From Deinococcales bacterium (lineage in GTDB: Bacteria; Deinococcota; Deinococci; Deinococcales; JAAFIG01): a stretch of DNA of 46,164 nucleotides. The notes beneath the pieces were generated by a model that saw only the letters and a program-made list of their open reading frames with translations, was not told where the DNA came from and ran no database searches. This document shows, one piece after another, positions 25,881 through 36,177 of this stretch (its first letter is position 1; the number at the start of each line of letters is the position of its first letter). Location: the NCBI GenBank assembly GCA_031414595.1, contig JANNVX010000039.1, positions 1 through 46,164 of the forward strand, written 5' to 3'. A program made the position numbers and the translations under genes.

Positions 25881-26063
25881 TATTTTTTCCTTTCCCAAAT
25901 CTTGGGTTTGCGATTTACACGGACTCCCGTTTGAACCGTGACAGAAGCGTATAAATTGGCTCTCTCGCAGCTTCCGCTTGGGCGAAAATCTTCAAAAGCA
26001 ACCCGAAAATATGTAAATAGCAAAACAGTAAAAGTCAAAAAAACCTGTACAATGAGCGTTCTG

Positions 26064-29000
26064 ATGCGCTTACACTTGCTTGGGCAACCTCATTTGGAAT
26101 TGGGCGACAAAGTTTTGCCACTGTCCAAGAACCACAGTCAAATTCTGGCTTGGCTGACGATGCACCAAAAAACGGGGCTACCAATGCCCCGAGTACGCTT
26201 GGCTCGAGCCATCTGGACGGACTGCACCGACGAACAAGGACGCAAACGCCTAGCCAACAGTTTGTACCGATTACGCCAAGAAATTCCAGAAATAGAAGAA
26301 TTTATGATTGGCGATGCCACATCCTTAGCGCTGCAACCAATGCCCACCGATGCGCTCGAGTTCCAAAAACTAATGCAGAGCCAAACCCCACAAGATTGGT
26401 TTCAGGCTCTTGAAATGTACCAAGGCGATTTACTCGAGGGCGAAGATGTACCTTGGTTAGACACATGGCGCGTAGAACTGCATCAAACCCTGTTGCAAGG
26501 TCTACGCCAAGCCATCCAGCAAGCCGACTCGAGCAGGGCAATACTCTTATCGCAACGCCTGATTCAACTCGAGCCGTGGAACGAAGAGGCACACACACAC
26601 TTGATACGCCTGTACGCCGACAATCAGCGCTTACCCGAAGCCATCAGTGCTTATGAAAAACTTGCAGACACCTTAAAACAAGAATTCTCGAGCCAACCAC
26701 GCCCAGAAACCCAAGTGTTTGTTAAAGACCTTGAACGCCAACTTGAACAGCAAAACAGTCAAACCCACCAAATCATGGTTGGGCGGAGTCTGGAATGGCG
26801 TTCTTTAACCAATGCCCTGAATGCCGTAAAAATCGGACAAGGTGGAATTATTTTAGTCGAGGGCGAACCCGGATTGGGCAAAACCCGTTTACTGCTCGAG
26901 TTAAAGTCATTATCGGCTTGGCACAATGTTTCTGCACTCTACGGAGCAGCCGCCAACAGCACACCCGCTTATGCCCCACTCGAACAATCCCTGCGCGGTG
27001 CGGCGGTACTACTCGAGCAAGCCACGCCCTTAATTCAAAAAAACCTCGAGCCACTGCTAAAAACTGCTCTGGATAACGAAGCCCAAGCCAATCCGCAATT
27101 GGTCAGTGCCGCCCTAGAACGCTGGTTGCGTCACCTCGAGCAACCGACGGTTTGGTTACTTGACGACCTGCACTGGGCAGGGGATTTATTCTGGAATGTG
27201 CTAAAAATGTTGGCTCGGGTCAGTCAACAACGCCCTGTGCTGCTGGTCATCTGCACCCGCAGCCAAGAATTGCGCGAAAATCAAAAAGCTTTTGAAACCC
27301 TGCTCGAGATTCGCCAGAACCAACAAGCCATGCACCATGCCCTCGGCGGACTGAGCTTAGAAGAATGTACACAATTGGCTCGAGGGCAAGGCAAGAACCT
27401 TGGCAATAAAGAACTCGAGCAGATGCACCGCATCAGTGCTGGTAATCCACTGGTTTTTCAGGAATTGGTACTGGGAAATTCTGCCGATAACCACCTAAGC
27501 GACGCTTTCCAAAGTCGGTTTTCCAAATTGGATAAAATGGCTCGAGAAGCGCTCGAAGCCGCATCGGTACTGGGTAAGCACCTAGACTTAAACACTTGGG
27601 AAGCGATGTTGGGTGTACAACCACCAATTACACAACTCCTCGAGACTCGGTTTTTGCATAAAGAACCCGAACTTGGTTTCCAACACGATTTAACACGGGT
27701 TTTTGTGTATGAACAAATGAAACTCGAGACACGGCAGAAATGGCATGGGCTGGCTTTTGAAGTCTTAAAAACACAGCAGACTCGAGCGGCTGTTTTAGCG
27801 CACCATGCCGAGGAAGCGGGGTTATTGGCGGAAAGTGTGGAACATTACCGTAATGCCGTATCAGAAGCCCTTAATCTAAATGCGTTTCAAGAAGCCAGTC
27901 GTTTATTAAAACTTGGTTTTTTATACAATCAACAATACCCAAATCAACTCGAGACAATGCACTTAAAGTTACTGCAATTGCAATTAGCTCAAGTCCAAAC
28001 TGCCAGTTTACCGGAAATTGAGGATTTAGAATCTTTAGAACAATCTGCTCGAAAACTTCAAGTTCATGATTTGGTATTCAAGTCACTGCAAATGCAATTC
28101 GATGTTTATGGTCTCAATGGAAATCATGAAAAGGCAGAACTGGCAGCTAATACTTTAATAAAATTTACTCAAGAAACTAATAATCAAGAAAAAGAAATAA
28201 CAGCCTTAACAAAAATCGCACTGCTGTTTGCTAAAACGCATTTTGAAGCTGGCAAAGGTCTAGGCTTTGCGTTAAGGGCTTACAATCTCTGTCAGAATAC
28301 CCCTATTTCAACTCAATTGCAGTTGCAAGTTTTGATTGCAGTAATTAATACACGTATGCGTACCAAAGAGTACGAACTTGCTTGGGAAATTCTCGTAGAA
28401 GCTGAAGAATTGGTTGTCAGTCATCCAGATTTAGTTGGATCAGAATTTTTGTTACTTAACACAAAAGGGAATCTAGCCAACACCTTAGAACACTATGAAC
28501 TTGCAGTGACAGTATTTCAAAAGCAACATAAATTGTCTTATTCCCTCGGAGATAACCGCGCTGTAGAAGTAACTTTAGCAAACTTAGCTGACGTACTTAA
28601 AAAATTAGGACGATTTGAAGAAGCCTTAGTGTGGGCAGAAGAATTTTCGCAAATGATGCCAGCCGCAAAAAACTGGCAGGAAGAAAGTAAAATTGCTTAT
28701 TATTTTTCCGAAATAACAGAAATTCTTGTTCGCATGGGGCGGCTAAATGAAGCTAAACAAATACTTCAACCGTTAGAAAAATGGATTAAAGAAGGTGCAA
28801 CTTCAATAGGTTCAAAACAAATTCTCCATATTTTCTTACAAGTACATCGTACCCAAGGAACATATCAAGAAGGATTAGAATTTCTAAAAGCTGTTCCTGA
28901 AACGATGTATACAAAACTGATTGCTGCCGAACTGTATTACTTAGCAGGATTCAGATACGAAGCTGAACTTAGAATCAGTCAAGCCCTTGCAGAACCAAAC

Positions 29001-29495
29001 CACTTTTCAAAAAATTTTGGGACACTCAGTCTGTTTTACACTGCTTATGTCATTTATCAACAAGCAATTGATCTTGAAAAAGCACGTTTTGCTTTACTTA
29101 GATTCACTAGCCATATCGAAACCCTCGAGAATCGGCAAATCATGCTTAAAAATGTGTACTACGCCAAAGCCATCGAAGCCGCTTGGCAACAACAAACCCT
29201 CGAGACAACTGTTATTGAACTCCCCGCTTTAACTGGCGAAGGCACGATTACAATCACTTGGACACTGAGTAGCGGTGCGTCGGACAAAGCACATCTCGAG
29301 CAACACGGCAAGGTTGCCCTGCGTAATCACCGCTTAAAGCGCCTAATGCTAGAAGCCCAAGCCCAAGGTGCGAAAGCCTTGCAAAGAGAATTGGCAACCG
29401 TGCTAGGTGTAACAGTCCGAACGATTGAAGCTGACATAGCCCAATTAAAGACAGAAGCATCTGTGCCACACGCTAAACCGCAAGCAAATCCATAG
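26064..29495 (+). CDS. Large regulator 1: wHTH-BTAD, AAA ATPase, TPR-like region, C-terminal DUF1670-like HTH
   Basis: MRLHLLGQP, YQGDLLEG, LEPWNEEAH, GEPGLGKTRL, LLDDLHWA, SAGNPL, FQHDL, QRELATVLGVTVRTIEADI. Confidence 0.88.
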   Translation: MRLHLLGQPHLELGDKVLPLSKNHSQILAWLTMHQKTGLPMPRVRLARAIWTDCTDEQGRKRLANSLYRLRQEIPEIEEFMIGDATSLALQPMPTDALEFQKLMQSQTPQDWFQALEMYQGDLLEGEDVPWLDTWRVELHQTLLQGLRQAIQQADSSRAILLSQRLIQLEPWNEEAHTHLIRLYADNQRLPEAISAYEKLADTLKQEFSSQPRPETQVFVKDLERQLEQQNSQTHQIMVGRSLEWRSLTNALNAVKIGQGGIILVEGEPGLGKTRLLLELKSLSAWHNVSALYGAAANSTPAYAPLEQSLRGAAVLLEQATPLIQKNLEPLLKTALDNEAQANPQLVSAALERWLRHLEQPTVWLLDDLHWAGDLFWNVLKMLARVSQQRPVLLVICTRSQELRENQKAFETLLEIRQNQQAMHHALGGLSLEECTQLARGQGKNLGNKELEQMHRISAGNPLVFQELVLGNSADNHLSDAFQSRFSKLDKMAREALEAASVLGKHLDLNTWEAMLGVQPPITQLLETRFLHKEPELGFQHDLTRVFVYEQMKLETRQKWHGLAFEVLKTQQTRAAVLAHHAEEAGLLAESVEHYRNAVSEALNLNAFQEASRLLKLGFLYNQQYPNQLETMHLKLLQLQLAQVQTASLPEIEDLESLEQSARKLQVHDLVFKSLQMQFDVYGLNGNHEKAELAANTLIKFTQETNNQEKEITALTKIALLFAKTHFEAGKGLGFALRAYNLCQNTPISTQLQLQVLIAVINTRMRTKEYELAWEILVEAEELVVSHPDLVGSEFLLLNTKGNLANTLEHYELAVTVFQKQHKLSYSLGDNRAVEVTLANLADVLKKLGRFEEALVWAEEFSQMMPAAKNWQEESKIAYYFSEITEILVRMGRLNEAKQILQPLEKWIKEGATSIGSKQILHIFLQVHRTQGTYQEGLEFLKAVPETMYTKLIAAELYYLAGFRYEAELRISQALAEPNHFSKNFGTLSLFYTAYVIYQQAIDLEKARFALLRFTSHIETLENRQIMLKNVYYAKAIEAAWQQQTLETTVIELPALTGEGTITITWTLSSGASDKAHLEQHGKVALRNHRLKRLMLEAQAQGAKALQRELATVLGVTVRTIEADIAQLKTEASVPHAKPQANP

Positions 29496-29562
29496 AATTT
29501 AGTAAGGCTGTGATACACTGAAACCACCCTGAAGATTGATGGGTGAAATTCAAGGAGAACAT

Positions 29563-29694
29563 ATGTTGAAAAAGTTAATTGCTTTGTTTTTGGTAGTTGG
29601 TCTATTTGCAATGAGTAACAACGCGTCTGCCGGTTGTATCACTATCTCTCTATTGGATGAAACGGGAGCCGTTGTTGGCGTAAGATGTAATTAA
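29563..29694 (+). CDS. 43-aa secreted peptide MLKKLIALFLVVGLFAMSNNASA|GCITISLLDETGAVVGVRCN (not in the ORF track)
   Basis: Hand translation; AAGGAG RBS, TGaTACACT extended -10 at 29511-29519, Sec signal with ASA site, downstream terminator, two paralogues in the window. Confidence 0.85.
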   Translation: MLKKLIALFLVVGLFAMSNNASAGCITISLLDETGAVVGVRCN

Positions 29695-29735
29695 ATTGAG
29701 TCGTTGATATTTTAATAAAAAACGTTTAGCTCGAG

Positions 29736-29769
29736 ACCGAGATAGCAATTATCTTAGTCTCGGTTTTTT
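29736..29769 (+). terminator. Rho-independent terminator after the peptide gene
   Basis: ACCGAGA...TCTCGGT stem followed by TTTTT. Confidence 0.7.
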
Positions 29770-29827
29770 AGTGTTGGCTATCACTCAAAGAAAATATTAA
29801 AATTGCTTTATAGTCACTTCTCGAGAA

Positions 29828-30235
29828 TCAGACTAAAAAAATACTTGGCGGAACTTGAAAACGCGCCGCGAATCGCTTGGCTAAAACCTTGCCAATGCCA
29901 CGTTCTCCGCGCAGAATTTTAGACAATGCCGATTGGTTCACCACGCCTTCTTGTGCCAATTTGTACTGCGTTAAACCGTGTGCATCCATCAGTGTTTGTA
30001 GTAATTCAAATGGCTTAGACTCGAGCGGCTTGGGTTCATTGTGCTTTTCCCACTCGAGGGCGTAACCAGCCAGCACACGCCATAAACTGCGGTATGGTTC
30101 GGCGTTGGTGTCGTACTTCTCGATTAAATTGGTGGTGAATTCTAGTAACTCGAGGTAATCAGCTTCGGATTGTGGGGCTTTGATCTGTTGCTGAAAAGTT
30201 TGCCAAGTTTTGATAACACTGTTCATGCTGGTCAT
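29828..30235 (-). CDS. higA: HigA-type HTH antitoxin
   Basis: PQSEADY, LQTLMDAHGLTQYKLA...QSALSKILRGERGI...FQVPPSIF; ATGA overlap with higB. Confidence 0.85.
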   Translation of the reverse strand: MTSMNSVIKTWQTFQQQIKAPQSEADYLELLEFTTNLIEKYDTNAEPYRSLWRVLAGYALEWEKHNEPKPLESKPFELLQTLMDAHGLTQYKLAQEGVVNQSALSKILRGERGIGKVLAKRFAARFQVPPSIFLV

Positions 30236-30543
30236 GATGGTCTGCCTCCTTTGTTCCATTTGTCATAGTCTTTGTGGTTCAGCACGTAAAGTATAAACAC
30301 AGCACGAAATTCAAAATCTATTCGGGTAATCACACGGTATTTGTTGCCGCCAATATCAAAAATAAAAACCAGTGTTCCATCTTTGGCTTTTGCAGTGTCC
30401 ACCGCAGGAAAAAAGGCTTTGAGTTGGGCAAAATTTTCTGGCTCGAGTTTGCAAAGTAAATTGTACCAACCGCGTAAGACAGGTTCGGCTTCTGGCTGAT
30501 GTTCGCAAAACGCTCGTATGGTGCGGTAAGCGATAACATTCAC
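30232..30543 (-). CDS. higB: HigB-type mRNA interferase toxin
   Basis: MNVIAYRTIR, IFDIGGNKYRVI, LNHKDYDK; promoter TTGCAA-17-TATACT ends 6 nt before GTG 30543. Confidence 0.9.
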   Translation of the reverse strand: MNVIAYRTIRAFCEHQPEAEPVLRGWYNLLCKLEPENFAQLKAFFPAVDTAKAKDGTLVFIFDIGGNKYRVITRIDFEFRAVFILYVLNHKDYDKWNKGGRPS

Positions 30544-30649
30544 ATCTCGAGTATAGGTCATTTTGGACTGTATTGCAAGTTCTGTGAAACGACTGAGGTT
30601 GGGACAGCAAAAAGCCTGTGCAAGACTGCACAGGCTCGAGAATATAGAT

Positions 30650-32125
30650 TTAATTCGCACCGAGTTTGATTTTACTAAGCATTCCGTACTGACTACCGGC
30701 GGTGCTGTCTGGAACGAGCCAGCCACCAATCACGAGCCGACCATCGGTTGATGTACCGCCAATCAGAGCCGATAACGCCGTGGTTTTGAAGGTGTTATTG
30801 CCAAAATTATAGATTCGCCGATTCGATGCCACTGGGTTACTAATACTGGTGTCGGGGTTAAAGGTCGTGTCGGCAGCCCCATTTAACAAGTACCGAAAGG
30901 CAAAGACCTGAGATGCACCGCCAGTGTTTTCTTCTGCTCCAATCACAATGATTTTATCATCCGACTGTACCAAGACTTTTTTGGCGCGTAAGGCTTGGGC
31001 AAAAGCACTGGCAGCAATCACTGTTCCACCACTGCCAAAAGTTGTATCGAGCGTCCCATCAGAATTTAAGCGAATCATGGCAAGGACGGTGGCTGTGGTG
31101 GTGGCTGTTCCAACCACAATAATTTTTTGGTTTTGCAGTGCCACACTGCTGGCAGCGTCACCAGAACTACCAGGAATGCTTTGTATGACATGCCCGACCG
31201 TGTTAAAACTGGTGTCTCGAGCGCCAGAACTGGTAAAACGCATGATTAAAAAAGAACCTGTTGTGCCGTGTTTACCGACCACAATGATATTGCCACTTGC
31301 ATCTAGCATCACGCTCGAGGCTTCGTTGTCGCTGTTTGTGCCGTCCACATCGTCTATGCGGATACCTGTACCGTTAAAACTGGTATCGAGTGCGCCAGTG
31401 GTGGTGTAACGCATCACAAAAACATTTTTATCGCCAGTTGTACCGTTTCTGACGTAACCAACAGCCACAATTTGATTATTGGGTTGTACCACAAGGTCAG
31501 TCATGACGTGTTCTGAACCTGCGGCGCTATGAATTGTCGTATTGACGGTTTGGTTGCTCGAGAAGGTAGTGTCGTTGCTGATGTTTGAACCGACTACACT
31601 GCGTCCCATAATCAACTGAGTCCCAGTGGCTGTGGTGATATGACCACCGCGAACAATACGGTTTAGCGAGTCAACCCCAACACTGGTGTAATAGGTGTTG
31701 GTGGCAGATGTTCCGTTGCTAAAAACAGCCCGAATATGGTCTCCGTTTGGGTAATAAAGACCAAGCCAACCCCCTGTGCTGCTGGGCATAACTTGTCCAA
31801 CACTGGCAATTCGACCATCAGAAAACTGGGCTATATCTTCGATACTGCTTGTTCCACCCGGGCGGATGACCCGAAACCCACCAGATGCAAAACACGGATC
31901 CATCCTGCCGACCACACTGGTAGGTGCAATACTTTCTAAGAAGGCTTCTGGGGCGGCGGCACTGCCAGCAATCCGAACCTGACAAGCATTGGCGTAGTCG
32001 CCTAGTGCATGAAGTGCATAATCGGAGGCGGTGTTCTGTGCCGAAGAGTAAATCGTGGTTACTTCTTCGTTGCTGTTACGTCTGGTTTCGATGTCGGTGC
32101 TGGCTTTTTCGTCTAAACTGCCAGC
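30650..32125 (-). pseudogene. 5'-truncated delta-60 lipoprotein gene, copy C
   Basis: The frame stays open upstream of the track start and matches copy B back to GSLDEKAST (~32122), then loses homology and hits a stop with no start codon. About 260 N-terminal aa, including the lipobox, are missing. Ends in LGAN like copy B. Confidence 0.8.
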
Positions 32126-32201
32126 GTAACGAAATTCAACAAAATCCAGAACAGCACGAAGATTTGTATTTTAATGCGCGAGAAAAGTACCAAAAAGTAA
32201 A

Positions 32202-32222
32202 TCTCGAGTAGTTTACTCGAGA
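32202..32222 (-). terminator. CTCGAG-pair hairpin terminating the peptide genes
   Basis: TCTCGAGTA-GTT-TACTCGAGA, followed on the minus strand by TTTACTTTTT. Confidence 0.6.
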
Positions 32223-32249
32223 CTACATGATATTTACAGGTAATTACCT

Positions 32250-32387
32250 TTAGCGGCTTTCATTTACAGTTATAACTGCCTCGCCATGTTCATCTAATAG
32301 CTCGACCAGAATATCTTTAGCTTGAGAAACTCCACTAAACGCAAATACGCTAATAATGAGGAAAACAGCAATCAACTTTTTTAACAT
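32250..32387 (-). CDS. 45-aa secreted peptide MLKKLIAVFLIISVFAFSGVSQA|KDILVELLDEHGEAVITVNESR
   Basis: AAGGAG RBS, TGcTATACT extended -10 (32431-32439), Sec signal ending SQA. Confidence 0.85.
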   Translation of the reverse strand: MLKKLIAVFLIISVFAFSGVSQAKDILVELLDEHGEAVITVNESR

Positions 32388-32541
32388 AACTACTCCTTTG
32401 TTCCTAATGTGTCGCAAAGCAGAATAAGATAGTATAGCAGGTAAAACAATTGGATTCATTGTGCGTACTGTGATTAAAACGAGGGCTAAAAGTCTTAATA
32501 TATGCTCTTACTTCACTTTAGTGAAATAAGAGCATGGTTAA

Positions 32542-32685
32542 TTATTCACCATGCTCATCTAAAAGCTCAACTAGAATATCGGTGCCGCAATTGGATGATG
32601 TATCTTCGGTATCTATAGCCAGAGAAAATCCACTAAATGTGAATGCTCCAATGGCAAGGAAAACAGCAATTAACTTTTTTAACAT
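32542..32685 (-). CDS. 47-aa secreted peptide MLKKLIAVFLAIGAFTFSGFSLA|IDTEDTSSNCGTDILVELLDEHGE (not in the ORF track)
   Basis: Hand translation; AAGGAG RBS, TGgTAAACT extended -10 (32724-32732); start region duplicated with the 32387 gene. Confidence 0.82.
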   Translation of the reverse strand: MLKKLIAVFLAIGAFTFSGFSLAIDTEDTSSNCGTDILVELLDEHGE

Positions 32686-32841
32686 AACTACTCCTTTATT
32701 TCTACGGCATCCTAGAGTCAATTAGTTTACCAGATAAAACAAGAAAAATCTAAAAACAGAAAAAAAAGCCGTTCTGAACCATATGAAATAAGAATTAATT
32801 AGTATGTAAACTTTAATTGCTCGGCAAATCACAGCCAGATT

Positions 32842-35800
32842 TTGGCGTTCCTAACGATGCAGCAAAACCCTAATTTGCCGATGCCCCGAGTGCGTTTGGC
32901 TCGAGCCATCTGGACAGACTGCACCGACGAACAAGGACGCAAACGCCTGACCAATAGCCTGTACCGGCTGCGCCAAGAACACCCAGAATTCGAGGAATGT
33001 ATTGTGGCTGATGCCACCACTTTGACCCTTCAACCGATTTGGACAGACACCAACCAATTTATGCGCTTAATTCATAGCCAAAAAGCCCAAGATTGGTTTA
33101 CGGCACTCGAGCATTACCAAGGTGATTTACTCGAAGACCAAGACATCCCTTGGTTAGAAATATGGCGTGTAGAACTACACCAAACGATGCTGCAAGGGTT
33201 ACGCCAAGCCATAGCACAAGCTGACTCGAGCCGAGGCATTGTCTTATCGCAACGCCTGATTCAACTCGAGCCTTGGAACGAAGCGGCACATACCCACTTA
33301 ATTCGGTTGTATGCCAAGTTAGGACAACGACCAGAAGCGATTGCGGTATTTGAAAAACTTGAACAGACCCTCACCCAAGAATTCTCGAGTCAACCACACC
33401 CAGAAACACGGGCATTTATTGCTGATTTACAACGCCAACTCGAGCAACCACACAACAAACCAAACCAAGCCTTGGTTGGACGCGACCAAGAATGGCGTGT
33501 ACTGACCAATGCCTTAAATGCGCTGCGGGTCGAACAGGGCGGTGTGATTATACTCGAAGGAGAAGCTGGACAAGGCAAAACCCGTTTACTGCTCGAATTA
33601 CAATCCCTTGCCAAATGGCACCAAATCCCAACTTTAGCTGGCATGACTTTTGGTGCAAAACTGCCTTATGCCCCACTCGAACAAGCCCTACAAAGTGCCA
33701 CTGTTCTACTCGAGCAGAGCAGTACCTTAATTCAAAAGAATCTCGAGCCGCTCCTAAAAACCAGTGTAGAGATTGAATCTTCGCCACAAGTCATCAGTGC
33801 GACTTTAGAACGTTGGATACGCCATCTTGAACAACCCACGCTATGGTTACTCGACGACTTACACTGGGCTGGCGATTTATTCTGGACAGTCCTAAAAATG
33901 TTGACCCGAATGGCACAACAACGTCCGGTCTTGCTGGTTCTAGCGGCTCGTTCCGAAGAACTGCTTGGCAATCCAAAAGCCTTCGAGACCCTAACCGAAA
34001 TTCGTCAAACCCCACAAGTGCAACATTATCGGCTTGGAGGACTAAGCCTAGAAGCCTGTGCTGTTTTAGCTCGAGGACTCGGTAAAACCATCAATTCAAT
34101 CGAACTCGAGCAACTGCACCGCGTCAGCGCTGGCAACCCCTTGGTTTTTGGAGAATTGGTACTCGGGCAACCCGCCGAACAACACCTCGAGAATGCTTTT
34201 CAGGGCAGATTCGCAAAACTGGATCAAAAACTTCAAAATGCCCTCGAAGCCGCTTCGGTACTCGGCAAACAATTTGATTTACAAGTTTGGACAGCCATGC
34301 TTGATACCCCCGCCCCGATAGCCCAACTATTAGAAACACGCTTTATCCTCGAGTCACCGACTTTGGCTTTTCAACACGACTTAACACGGGTTTTTGTGTA
34401 CGAACAAATGAGTCTTGAGACACGGCAAAAATGGCACGAACGCGCTTTTGAAGTCTGCAAAAATTTTCAAACCCGAGCCATTTTGCTTGCCCACCACGCC
34501 CAAGAAGCCAATTTGTTAAGCCAAAGTGTGACTTATTACCGCCGAGCCGCCGAAGAAGCCCTAGGATTTTGTGCCTACCAAGATGCCCAAAATTACATCC
34601 AGCAAGCAACGATAAATAATCAATCCCTTCAAGCTAATGTACTCGAGGCACTACATTTGCAACTGATGCAGATGCGAATTTCATTTATTCAAGAGCCGGG
34701 GAATCAATCGGTGTTGGACTTAGAAACTTTGGAAACTCAGACCCGCCAATATCAAGACAAAGACCTAATGTATCACACCTTCGTTCTTAAATTGGGAATT
34801 CTAGCGACTCAAGGAAAAAGCCAAGCAACTTTACAAACCGCTGAGTCACTATGGTTCTGGACTCGAGAAATAAGAGACTCTGTACTAGAAGTCCGTGCAT
34901 TAACGATTAGTTCAGTCACCATCGCTCGGTCTTTTCTCGAGTCAGATAAAGCCCTTCTGTATGCCCAAAAAGCCCACGAGTTATGTCAAGTACACGAAAT
35001 TCCTGCCAGAGAACAATTTCGTACACTGATTGCCCTGACTAATTCGTATATCCGTGCTTCCAATTTTGAATCGGCGTGGCAAACACTTGCCGAAGTCGAA
35101 CAGATATTTCATGACAACCCATCACTGGTTATCCATGCTGTACAGCTTTTTAACATTAAAGGCGCATTAGCTCTTTATGGTGAACATTTTGAATTAGCAG
35201 TAAACGTTTTTCAAAAGCAACTTGACGATTGTTACACCCTAGGTGATGGTCGGCAAATCAATACCACCTTGGGCAATTTAGCCAGTTCGTTAATTAGACT
35301 AGGACGTTTTGAAGAAGCGCTTATTTGGGCAGAGGAACGCGCCGAACGAGCGCCAAAAGCAAAGCACTTACTGAGTGAAAGTCAAGTTGCCTATTATTTT
35401 ACCAATCTCGCCGAAGTTTTACTTTGTTTAGGACGAATTGACGAAGCCAATTCTTTACTCGACCCAATAAAATCATGGGCAATTGCAGAAGGTGCTTCTT
35501 TTTATGCCACAAAAACCAGAGAGGTTTTAGCCCTCATTTTACGGGCTAAAAAACAATTTGTGGCAGCCTTAGAAATTTTGTCGAATACCGAACAAGATTT
35601 AACGTTTCAATCTGAACTGGCATGTTTAGCGGGTTTGCAAGAAAAAGCCAAACCACTTCTTGGTCTGGCTTTGACAGCTACTTCGCCACTCGAGAATAAC
35701 CACTCGGCAATGTGCTACCACTACACAAAGTACCTGATTTATCAAAATCCAACCGTCCTTGAATTGGCTCGTTTTTCACTGCTCAGATTCGCTTGTCAAA

Positions 35801-36177
35801 TCGAAACCCTCGAGAATCGGCGGGTGATGCTTAAAAACGAGTATTACGCCAAAGCCGTAGAAGCCGCTTGGCAACAACAAGCCCTCGAGACAAGCGTTGT
35901 AGAACTCCCTGCTTTAACTGGCGAAGGCACAATTACAATCACTTGGACACTGAGTAGTGGCGCTTCGGACAAAGCCATTCTCGAGCAGCAAGACAAAGTG
36001 GCACTTCGTAATCACCGCTTAAAACGCCTGATGCTTGAAGCCCAAGCCCAAGGCGCAAAAGCCTTGCAGCGTCACCTTGCTACTGCCCTAGGGGTGGCAG
36101 TACGCACCATCGAAACCGATTTTTCTCAATTTAAGACTACAGCACAGGAAAAATCTCTGAACTCGAGTTCAGATTAA
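32842..36177 (+). CDS. Large regulator 2, paralogue of 26064-29495, lacking the first ~20 aa (possibly impaired)
   Basis: Same architecture (GEAGQGKTRL, LLDDLHWA, C-terminal HTH). Homology starts at NHSQI (~32827), with an in-frame stop at ~32800 and no RLHLLG strand. Confidence 0.8.
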   Translation: MAFLTMQQNPNLPMPRVRLARAIWTDCTDEQGRKRLTNSLYRLRQEHPEFEECIVADATTLTLQPIWTDTNQFMRLIHSQKAQDWFTALEHYQGDLLEDQDIPWLEIWRVELHQTMLQGLRQAIAQADSSRGIVLSQRLIQLEPWNEAAHTHLIRLYAKLGQRPEAIAVFEKLEQTLTQEFSSQPHPETRAFIADLQRQLEQPHNKPNQALVGRDQEWRVLTNALNALRVEQGGVIILEGEAGQGKTRLLLELQSLAKWHQIPTLAGMTFGAKLPYAPLEQALQSATVLLEQSSTLIQKNLEPLLKTSVEIESSPQVISATLERWIRHLEQPTLWLLDDLHWAGDLFWTVLKMLTRMAQQRPVLLVLAARSEELLGNPKAFETLTEIRQTPQVQHYRLGGLSLEACAVLARGLGKTINSIELEQLHRVSAGNPLVFGELVLGQPAEQHLENAFQGRFAKLDQKLQNALEAASVLGKQFDLQVWTAMLDTPAPIAQLLETRFILESPTLAFQHDLTRVFVYEQMSLETRQKWHERAFEVCKNFQTRAILLAHHAQEANLLSQSVTYYRRAAEEALGFCAYQDAQNYIQQATINNQSLQANVLEALHLQLMQMRISFIQEPGNQSVLDLETLETQTRQYQDKDLMYHTFVLKLGILATQGKSQATLQTAESLWFWTREIRDSVLEVRALTISSVTIARSFLESDKALLYAQKAHELCQVHEIPAREQFRTLIALTNSYIRASNFESAWQTLAEVEQIFHDNPSLVIHAVQLFNIKGALALYGEHFELAVNVFQKQLDDCYTLGDGRQINTTLGNLASSLIRLGRFEEALIWAEERAERAPKAKHLLSESQVAYYFTNLAEVLLCLGRIDEANSLLDPIKSWAIAEGASFYATKTREVLALILRAKKQFVAALEILSNTEQDLTFQSELACLAGLQEKAKPLLGLALTATSPLENNHSAMCYHYTKYLIYQNPTVLELARFSLLRFACQIETLENRRVMLKNEYYAKAVEAAWQQQALETSVVELPALTGEGTITITWTLSSGASDKAILEQQDKVALRNHRLKRLMLEAQAQGAKALQRHLATALGVAVRTIETDFSQFKTTAQEKSLNSSSD

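Follow-up and report, generated by a model that had tools for sequence, protein, structure and literature searches.

Peptide signalling through cytoplasmic TPR receptors has, to our knowledge, been described almost exclusively from Bacillota and the mobile elements of this phylum. In these RRNPP systems (Rap-Phr, NprR-NprX, PlcR-PapR, Rgg-SHP and AimR-AimP), the signals are short C-terminal 5-10-mers. The signals that activate the large SARP/STAND regulators, for example AfsR, are as far as we know poorly understood. The small gene afsS is adjacent to afsR, and its product AfsS is a cytoplasmic protein of 63 aa without a signal peptide.

In the part of PMC10075063 used here, an RRNPP pair is characterized by a Sec-secreted propeptide of 10-100 aa adjoining a TPR receptor of 250-500 aa, and the reference pairs have intergenic distances ranging from -50 to 191 bp. 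In the corresponding part of PMC10936776, SARP activators are described as acting on promoters with poor -35 elements, with AfsR driving afsS, and the SARP direct repeats are given a spacing of 11 or 22 bp, the last repeat lying 8 bp from the -10 element. Keyword searches of the open-access literature yielded no publication on peptide signals in Deinococcota or on peptides as ligands of SARP/STAND regulators, which is not proof of absence.

The window, that is, the whole stretch of 46,164 nt analysed here, carries three copies of a small gene (P1, P2 and P3) close to two large AfsR-like regulators with TPRs (Table 1). The reading we favour is that P1 may be exported and may act as a signal with a functional link to these neighbouring regulators, and we put its probability at roughly one in three (0.35). 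If this reading is true, peptide quorum sensing would be extended to another phylum, one with an outer membrane, and a concrete ligand class would be available for a STAND transcription factor. If it is not true, P1 would represent a well-supported but ordinary lineage-specific family of small secreted proteins, and the cassettes would illustrate small-gene movement and damage to neighbours.

Table 1. Coordinates of the P1 gene, its paralogues, the cassettes and the two regulators in the window.
Feature	Position	Strand	Remarks
Regulator 1	25938..29495	+	1185-codon frame; likely start at codon 43 (26064), giving 1143 aa
P1 cassette, indel	29496..29819	+	blastn breakpoints, junction alignment, bridging contig, GC
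P1 promoter, extended -10 TGATACACT	29511-29519	+	from sequence; no good -35
P1 RBS, AAGGAG	29552-29557	+	5 nt 5' of ATG at 29563
P1 ORF, 43 codons and stop	29563-29694	+	product MLKKLIALFLVVGLFAMSNNASAGCITISLLDETGAVVGVRCN
P1 signal peptide, codons 1-23, ending in ASA	29563-29631	+	Sec-type by rule
P1 mature part, codons 24-43, GCITISLLDETGAVVGVRCN		+	putative cleavage site from the -3/-1 rule
P1 intrinsic terminator	29732-29769	+	hairpin 29732-29762 on CTCGAG word; T6 at 29764-29769
P2/P3 cassette block	32140..32820	.	by comparison with G005 (L038)
P3 terminator	32224-32200	-	
P3, 45 aa, signal peptide then KDILVELLDEHGEAVITVNESR	32387..32250	-	match to P1, E 5.7e-6
P3 extended -10	32439-32431	-	
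P2 hairpin, 15 bp	32535-32502	-	without T run
P2, 47 aa, signal peptide then IDTEDTSSNCGTDILVELLDEHGE	32685..32542	-	ends just past the turn
P2 extended -10	32732-32724	-	
Regulator 2	32842..36177	+	1,111 aa; 58% identical to regulator 1, same domains; 5' end truncated here

The P1 gene and its family

The original prediction described P1 as a complete mini transcription unit, and all of its parts (extended -10 element, RBS, ORF, and hairpin followed by six T residues) were found in the sequence. The ORF starts 67 nt 3' of the stop codon of regulator 1, counted from the frame 25938..29495. Since the promoter has no -35 element, it was missed by the consensus promoter scan, and the terminator was not picked up by a simple terminator scan. 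The fold of the terminator had an energy of -17.7 kcal/mol (z -2.18), and an equally good fold was obtained in 3 of 200 shuffled sequences. This terminator possibly also serves the convergent higA gene in a bidirectional manner. The gene had also been called unannotated. This is probably not so: a 43-aa protein identical to P1 is recorded with NCBI as its source, on a contig of 46,164 nt, and the P1 gene appears to be annotated in NCBI already.

A family profile was built from P1, P2 and P3 and searched in the genome that carries the window (G000) and in 60 relatives. Full-length matches were found in two of the 61 genomes, namely G000 and G001, a MAG of the same genus with two copies designated Pa and Pb. 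Word-index and exhaustive protein searches yielded only singletons from metagenomes, P0002 (51 aa), P0006 (44 aa) and P0012 (42 aa), the last being a divergent member of the family; P0027, found on three contigs, is P1 with a longer start. No further members were detected in two JGI metagenome scans and one viral scan, and the scan of species-representative genomes returned only the G001 contig and one match limited to the signal peptide. The peptides matched nothing from Pfam, NCBIfam or PADLOC, and no match of at least 0.9 was found in the Atlas, where the best was 0.82. The P1 family is tiny and lineage-specific, with three copies in the window.

Pairwise dN/dS ranged from 0.04 to 0.4 in all of the comparisons with estimable dS (18 of 30 pair/region comparisons), and the values for P1 against its paralogues were 0.23-0.38 in the pairs for which dS could be estimated. 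The 36-nt core encoding DILVELLDEHGE in P2, P3, Pa and Pb contains 8 variable sites, 8 of them synonymous and none non-synonymous, and the conserved core has the pattern D/x-I-L/T-V/I-E/S-L-L/F-D-E-H/T-G. The RBS was located at a spacing of 5 nt, as AAGGAG in four of the five cassettes and as AAGGGG in the fifth, and an extended -10 element of the form TGnTAnAcT was present 43 or 38 nt 5' of the ATG in four of the five. The claim that P1 is a real, self-contained 43-aa gene was borne out, because it has paralogues, is under purifying selection and keeps the position of its promoter and RBS; by these comparisons the small gene is genuine and is probably transcribed on its own. Between P1 and P3 dS was saturated. 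To judge from their divergence, P1 and P2/P3 are old paralogues and not fresh copies.

Regulators and cassette insertions

Both regulators contain a BTAD domain, an AAA_16 (NOD) module, TPRs and a C-terminal DUF1670-like HTH in Pfam; for the neighbour gene of the peptide, the scores were 53.5 bits for BTAD (cut-off 22.1) and 80.1 bits for AAA_16, alongside TPR_19, TPR_12 and other TPR matches. In the PDB profile search, the STAND sensor PH0952 was matched, as were LGN/Pins-type TPRs at positions 798-880. Trans_reg_C was not matched in Pfam, and the first ~100 residues of the regulator look wHTH-like by eye. Among the homologues, P0028 has 1143 aa, which matches a start of regulator 1 at 26064, and P0030 has been named 'SARP family' by JGI. 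The placement of P1 had been likened to that of phr genes 3' of rap. The positional part of this comparison stands, for P1 follows a regulator with TPRs and is preceded by a promoter of its own, but the neighbour is not a Rap protein. Rap was rejected on the domains, which are those of an AfsR-like BTAD-AAA-TPR STAND regulator. A higBA-like pair and a delta-60/DUF5122 propeller gene lie between regulators 1 and 2, and P2 is divergent from regulator 2 at a distance of 156 nt.

The GC content was 0.37 for the P1 cassette (29456-29819) and 0.34 for the P2/P3 block, compared with 0.467 for the window. In G001 (L037) and G003 (L035), regulator 1 is followed directly by higA, with 14-20 nt in place of 29456-29819. 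A different gene lies 3' of regulator 1 in G004 (L036), and in G005 (L038) the tail of the regulator is homologous up to its stop, while positions 29496 to 30608, including higBA, are absent. A metagenome contig from run X7 joins 29449 to 29820 through 20 other letters and represents an empty P1 site. The right junction of the P1 cassette falls on CTCGAG, a word that the empty site contains as well and that occurs 235 times in the window.

The P2/P3 block replaces about 1,160 nt of G005 comprising the 5' part of the propeller gene, the spacer and about the first 21 codons of regulator 2; in G005, an intact gene for a 764-aa lipoprotein is separated by a spacer of 290 nt from regulator 2, which has its full length there. 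At 32821, a loose end of an X7 contig matched the 5' end of regulator 2 in the intact form seen in L038, which shows that this end is intact in a related population. The loose ends of contigs from runs X9 and X10 at 32139 continue with letters unlike those of the window. In G001 the edges of the block are other deletions, such that the propeller gene keeps 603 codons and regulator 2 is without about 267 codons, among them those for the Walker A region. Despite this truncation, the G001 peptides Pa and Pb are still under purifying selection. Read cover across the P1 region (29536-29803) was zero in runs X5, X7, X9 and X10, and across the P2/P3 region (32216-32751) it was zero in X5, X7 and X9 and 0.17 in one bin in X10; the evidence taken from the run mapping was limited to the loose ends and the contig that bridges the P1 site. 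No donor copy of either cassette was found in the whole genome by blastn, and the repeat search detected no terminal inverted repeats or target duplications. On the evidence of these alignments, the peptide cassettes are recent low-GC insertions, one of which cut regulator 2 short. No family member was found in G003, G004 and G005, either at the orthologous loci or in whole-genome profile searches. As three relatives have retained the regulator but lack the cassette, P1 is not an obligate partner of this regulator.

Such insertions could also be explained without any link to the regulators. In that case, foreign or shuffled cassettes would have entered a recombination-prone locus, the function of the peptide would be unrelated to the regulators, and the adjacency would be the outcome of local duplication and chance. 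This agrees with the low GC of both cassettes, the promoter and terminator that each cassette brings with it, the flanking-gene deletions that end differently in G000 and G001, the very narrow distribution of the family, and a right junction of the P1 cassette on so frequent a word as CTCGAG. However, the old paralogues P1 and P2/P3 both have a member of a single regulator pair as neighbour, TPR genes across the genome are flanked by small signal-peptide ORFs more often than expected, P0012 and P0030 probably share a contig (both described below), and the donor copy, terminal inverted repeats and target duplications that were looked for did not turn up. We consider an unlinked passenger doubtful.

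Export, cysteines and shape of the peptide

The signal-peptide-like N-terminus ascribed to P1 was recovered as rule-based features in all eight family sequences. Each starts with M-L/K-K-K, followed by a hydrophobic run of 12-13 residues with a central Gly or Ser and then by a polar stretch, and each has A, S or G at -3 and an invariant Ala at -1. Under the -3/-1 rule, A-x-A at these positions is the signal for signal peptidase I. By this rule every member of the family consists of a Sec-type signal peptide and an acidic peptide of 20-24 residues, and export of the family is plausible. A lipoprotein cytochrome c encoded in the same genome has an N-terminus similar to the signal part.

Given cleavage after ASA, cysteines are present at mature positions 2 and 19 of P1, as had been stated. 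The original prediction had proposed conservation of this pair among homologues as a check, and here it failed: the pair occurs in P1 and its identical copies only, and the other seven sequences have none or one. P1 and P0027 carry the pair, P2 and P0006 have one Cys each, and P3, Pa, Pb, P0002 and P0012 have none. A disulfide-stapled hairpin was rejected as a family trait, the Cys pair being private to P1 and P0027. Cys2-Cys19 could staple a hairpin in the P1 copy alone, which would not be how the family works; a disulfide in P1 is possible because DsbA-like proteins are present in the genome (four matches).

P1 is also alone in the family in having a Cys directly after the predicted cleavage site, and its sequence ...NASAG-C, with S-A-G-C, fits the PROSITE lipobox rule. 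A lipidated 19-mer would be an alternative fate of P1, in which use of the lipobox would compete with the disulfide. More generally, P1 might remain bound to the membrane, either as a lipidated peptide of 19 residues, produced by signal peptidase II cleavage ahead of Cys25, or as an uncleaved signal anchor resembling type I toxins. Besides the presumed lipobox, such a fate is favoured by the LspA encoded in the genome and by a setting typical of small toxins, that is, a small, hydrophobic, tandemly duplicated and narrowly distributed gene beside higBA. In contrast, the Cys is missing at the lipobox position in the other seven family sequences, the invariant Ala at -1 points to signal peptidase I, and a hydrophobic run of 12-13 residues is short for a membrane span. 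Moreover, selection is strongest on the polar core and not on the hydrophobic part, and no antisense promoter was found in the consensus scan. Taken together, a membrane-bound P1 seems very unlikely.

AlphaFold2, run with an alignment of eight rows, predicted for P1 a helix at residues 2-19 and strands at 28-31 and 37-40 around a D-E-T-G turn, with a pLDDT of only 58-67 in the mature part. Of the beta-hairpin closed by a disulfide that had been proposed, the strand, D-x-x-G turn and second strand are plausible according to this model, but closure by Cys is not a family-wide property. The second strand is not universally retained, since P2 and P0002 end just past the turn; P0002 is perhaps cut by the end of its contig.

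The family profile (positions ~13-41) also matched repeats in 19 large proteins of 602-7871 aa with E <= 0.001, at 3-14 stretches in each protein. All five of the large proteins that were scanned carry SdrD_B, CarboxypepD_reg or SpaA repeats of the prealbumin fold. These SdrD_B/prealbumin-fold repeats and the P1 family have in common a hydrophobic strand, an L-L-D-x-x-G turn and a second hydrophobic strand; the match, with the pattern VTV-x-LLD-x-x-G-x-V, corresponds to the first hairpin of the repeat. This similarity supports a common strand-turn-strand habit and does not imply descent. A complete SdrD_B-like domain was rejected for P1 on size: the domain has 80-110 residues compared with about 20 in P1, which makes the fold impossible for P1 alone, and there was no Pfam match. 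The peptides are anionic as calculated from sequence, with net charges of about -1 for P1 and about -4 for P3, and a cationic antimicrobial hairpin peptide was rejected for this reason.

Relation to the TPR regulators and to known systems

If P1 is a signal, its precursor would be exported and cut after the A-x-A site, and the freed peptide, or a fragment of it that includes the core, would then serve as a signal connected with the AfsR-like regulators. In the most likely loop, the SARP-type DNA-binding part of the regulator would drive the -35-less promoters of the peptide genes, and the re-imported peptide would be read by the TPR sensor of the regulator. The whole would amount to a STAND switch combined with a circuit of the Phr/PapR/SHP kind, in which the two peptide types, P1 and P2/P3, would pair with the two paralogous regulators. 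Peptide uptake is feasible since Opp-type binding proteins are encoded in the genome (15 matches).

A link to the regulators is hinted at by the gaps of 67 nt and 156 nt, because both fall within the range of the reference RRNPP pairs and both neighbours carry TPRs. It is also hinted at by the anciently diverged P1 and P3, which are each adjacent to one member of the paralogous regulator pair. The family member P0012 and P0030, a regulator homologue, were each recorded on one JGI contig with a length of 31,307 nt; they probably lie on the same contig, and this is a further hint of the same kind.

The genome was also searched for small signal-peptide-like ORFs. With a loose rule, which was our own heuristic and was refined after the candidates had been seen, 121 such ORFs were found, 18 of them intergenic, and four of these 18 (at three loci, C18, C29 and the P1 locus) were less than 300 bp from one of 58 TPR_12/BTAD frames. 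About 0.14 would be expected from the genome fraction, or about 0.5 when the intergenic regions flanking such genes are counted using our own estimate of about 4,000 genes. This enrichment of small ORFs beside TPR genes is suggestive and provides another hint of a link. A small signal-peptide ORF also abuts a 653-aa TPR protein at C78, and at C67 a small ORF lies 3' of a 971-aa protein with a sub-threshold TPR match. The partners at C18, C29 and C78 are TPR(-wHTH) proteins of 550-670 aa that have no AAA module. The mature parts of these peptides are unrelated to those of the P1 family, whereas the signal peptides are alike (G003 match, E 9.8e-5).

The other eight BTAD-AAA regulators of G000 had no such ORF within 1.5 kb (for C86, at the 5' end only), and among 24 distant regulator loci there were seven heuristic matches, none of them convincing. 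The pairing is thus not general. Further results argue against a link: orthologous regulators exist without the peptides in G003, G004 and G005; the family was found in only two of 61 genomes; the empty P1 site is bridged by a metagenome contig; the second cassette damaged its supposed partner, regulator 2; by eye, no SARP-style 11-bp direct repeats were seen 5' of the P1 -10 element; and the receptor would be more than twice the size of an RRNPP receptor and lacks a Rap, NprR, PlcR or Rgg signature. When residues 430-1060 of regulator 1 were modelled in complex with residues 14-43 of P1, the score was 0.01 and the mark 0.32, and this prediction was given no weight in either direction.

Upstream of the -10 elements, inspection by eye revealed no convincing SARP-style 11-bp direct repeats. 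T-rich direct repeats about 16-19 bp apart were seen for P2 and Pa, and none was clear for P1. The promoters bear on a further explanation, in which the peptide genes are targets of the SARP regulator and the peptide acts in the envelope or outside the cell, as an inhibitor, in adhesion or matrix, or antagonistically, and is not sensed by the regulator. The extended -10 element without a -35 in four of the five cassettes is the type of promoter served by SARP activators, as far as PMC10936776 is drawn on here. A small ORF beside a large SARP-NOD-TPR protein recalls AfsR-afsS, and the mature part is like the beta-hairpin of cell-surface SdrD_B/prealbumin-fold repeats. Against a role as output only, SARP-type repeats were not recognised, the indels show regulators kept without cassettes in relatives, the cassettes contain no immunity or partner gene, and the peptides, being anionic, are unlike typical membrane-active ones. 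We regard this explanation as unlikely.

The signalling reading can be carried further, to a diderm outside Bacillota in which Sec-exported peptides serve as ligands of STAND (SARP-NOD-TPR) proteins, so that peptide quorum sensing would be joined to an NTPase switch; regulator 1 and P1 would form one pherotype and regulator 2 and P2/P3 the other, and the pairs would spread between strains as small cassettes by recombination. This extended form would be distinctly unlikely.

Compared with AfsR of Streptomyces, the regulators at this locus have the same BTAD-NOD-arm-TPR architecture, as it is described in the part of PMC10936776 cited here. The likeness extends to the arrangement, since a regulator adjoins a small gene whose promoter is without a good -35. 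Unlike AfsR, both regulators have an extra C-terminal DUF1670-like HTH, and no direct repeats of 11 bp placed 8 bp from the -10, as for AfsR-afsS, were recognised. AfsR chains were not matched by sequence when the PDB was searched with the regulators.

The comparison with RRNPP systems is likewise mixed. The propeptides P1, P3 and P2 (43, 45 and 47 aa) are within the RRNPP size range, and they adjoin their putative receptors, P1 downstream on the same strand (67 nt) and P2 divergently (156 nt). Regulators 1 and 2 carry TPRs, as RRNPP receptors do, and P1 has its own promoter. In contrast, the regulators have 1,143-1,185 and 1,111 aa instead of 250-500 aa, and they possess a STAND NTPase module and a BTAD domain that RRNPP receptors do not have; no Rap, NprR, PlcR, Rgg, PrgX or AimR family was found among their Pfam or NCBIfam matches. 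RRNPP hosts are Bacillota, whereas the host here is a diderm member of Deinococcota. The P1 family also differs from RRNPP peptides in that a part of about 12 residues directly after the signal peptide is conserved, and in that, in relatives, the regulator does without the peptide. The P1-regulator pair may work like an RRNPP pair, yet it is not a member of the RRNPP family.

The regulators and the sequences upstream of P2

Regulators 1 and 2, the paralogous BTAD-AAA-TPR proteins, were each found to carry a C-terminal DUF1670-like HTH, with Pfam E-values of 4e-6 and 7.5e-5, respectively, both near the cut-off. Since this HTH adds to the N-terminal BTAD part, each regulator may have two DNA-binding modules. 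Regulator 2 has lost its start, approximately the first 21 codons in the window and approximately 267 codons in the same-genus MAG G001. Despite this 5' loss the remaining frame is open in both; regulator 2 is a pseudogene of recent origin or else a protein with a shortened N-terminus. Inspection by eye detected T-rich direct repeats (TTTTCTGTTTT.. / TTTTCTTGTTTT..) directly upstream of the -10 element of the small peptide gene P2 and of Pa, its counterpart in G001. These repeats could be an operator or a UP-like element.

Coordinates of the features (contigs C18, C29, C67 and C78 belong to G000, the genome of the window; L066 is the G001 sequence with Pa)
Feature	Position	Strand	Basis or context
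HigB-toxin-domain gene and HTH (HigA-like) gene	29828-30561	-	between regulator 1 and propeller gene
delta-60/DUF5122 beta-propeller gene, 5'-truncated	30650-31915	-	comparison with G005 and G001
DUF1670-like HTH, C-terminal, regulators 1 and 2	29247-29456; 35932-36138		Pfam
T-rich direct repeats	window 32741-32770; L066:210-245	- (window)	by eye
Regulator 2 5' end, shortened	window 32803-32842; G001:C273:1-111 and G001:C267		comparison with relatives
CTCGAG copies singled out	29730, 29820, 32203, 32216		window
Mini ORF C18	G000:C18:189695-189829		adjoins TPR-match protein
Mini ORF C29	G000:C29:7174-7058		adjoins TPR-match protein
Mini ORF C78	G000:C78:9930-10055		adjoins TPR-match protein
Mini ORF C67	G000:C67:58509-58637		adjoins TPR-match protein

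Neighboring genes and the CTCGAG word

G005 lacks the HigB/HigA-like pair, which G000, G001 and G003 all have. The G005 orthologue of the propeller gene (L038 530..2824) encodes a 764-aa lipoprotein; in G001, 603 codons are left, without a signal peptide. The word CTCGAG was counted 235 times in the 46,164-nt window, and the terminator stems of both P1 and P3 are built around it. The P1 cassette has its right junction on a CTCGAG copy that, by junction alignment, also occurs at the empty site of G001 and G003.

Further mini ORFs beside TPR proteins

Four further mini ORFs of 38-44 aa with strong predicted signal peptides were identified in G000, each adjoining a 550-971-aa protein with TPR matches. 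The C29 peptide ends in ...IFPPTVCTRC, and its relative in G003, which ends in ...NIPPEVCSKC, also adjoins a TPR protein, the C-terminal stretch of which appears winged-helix-like by eye only.
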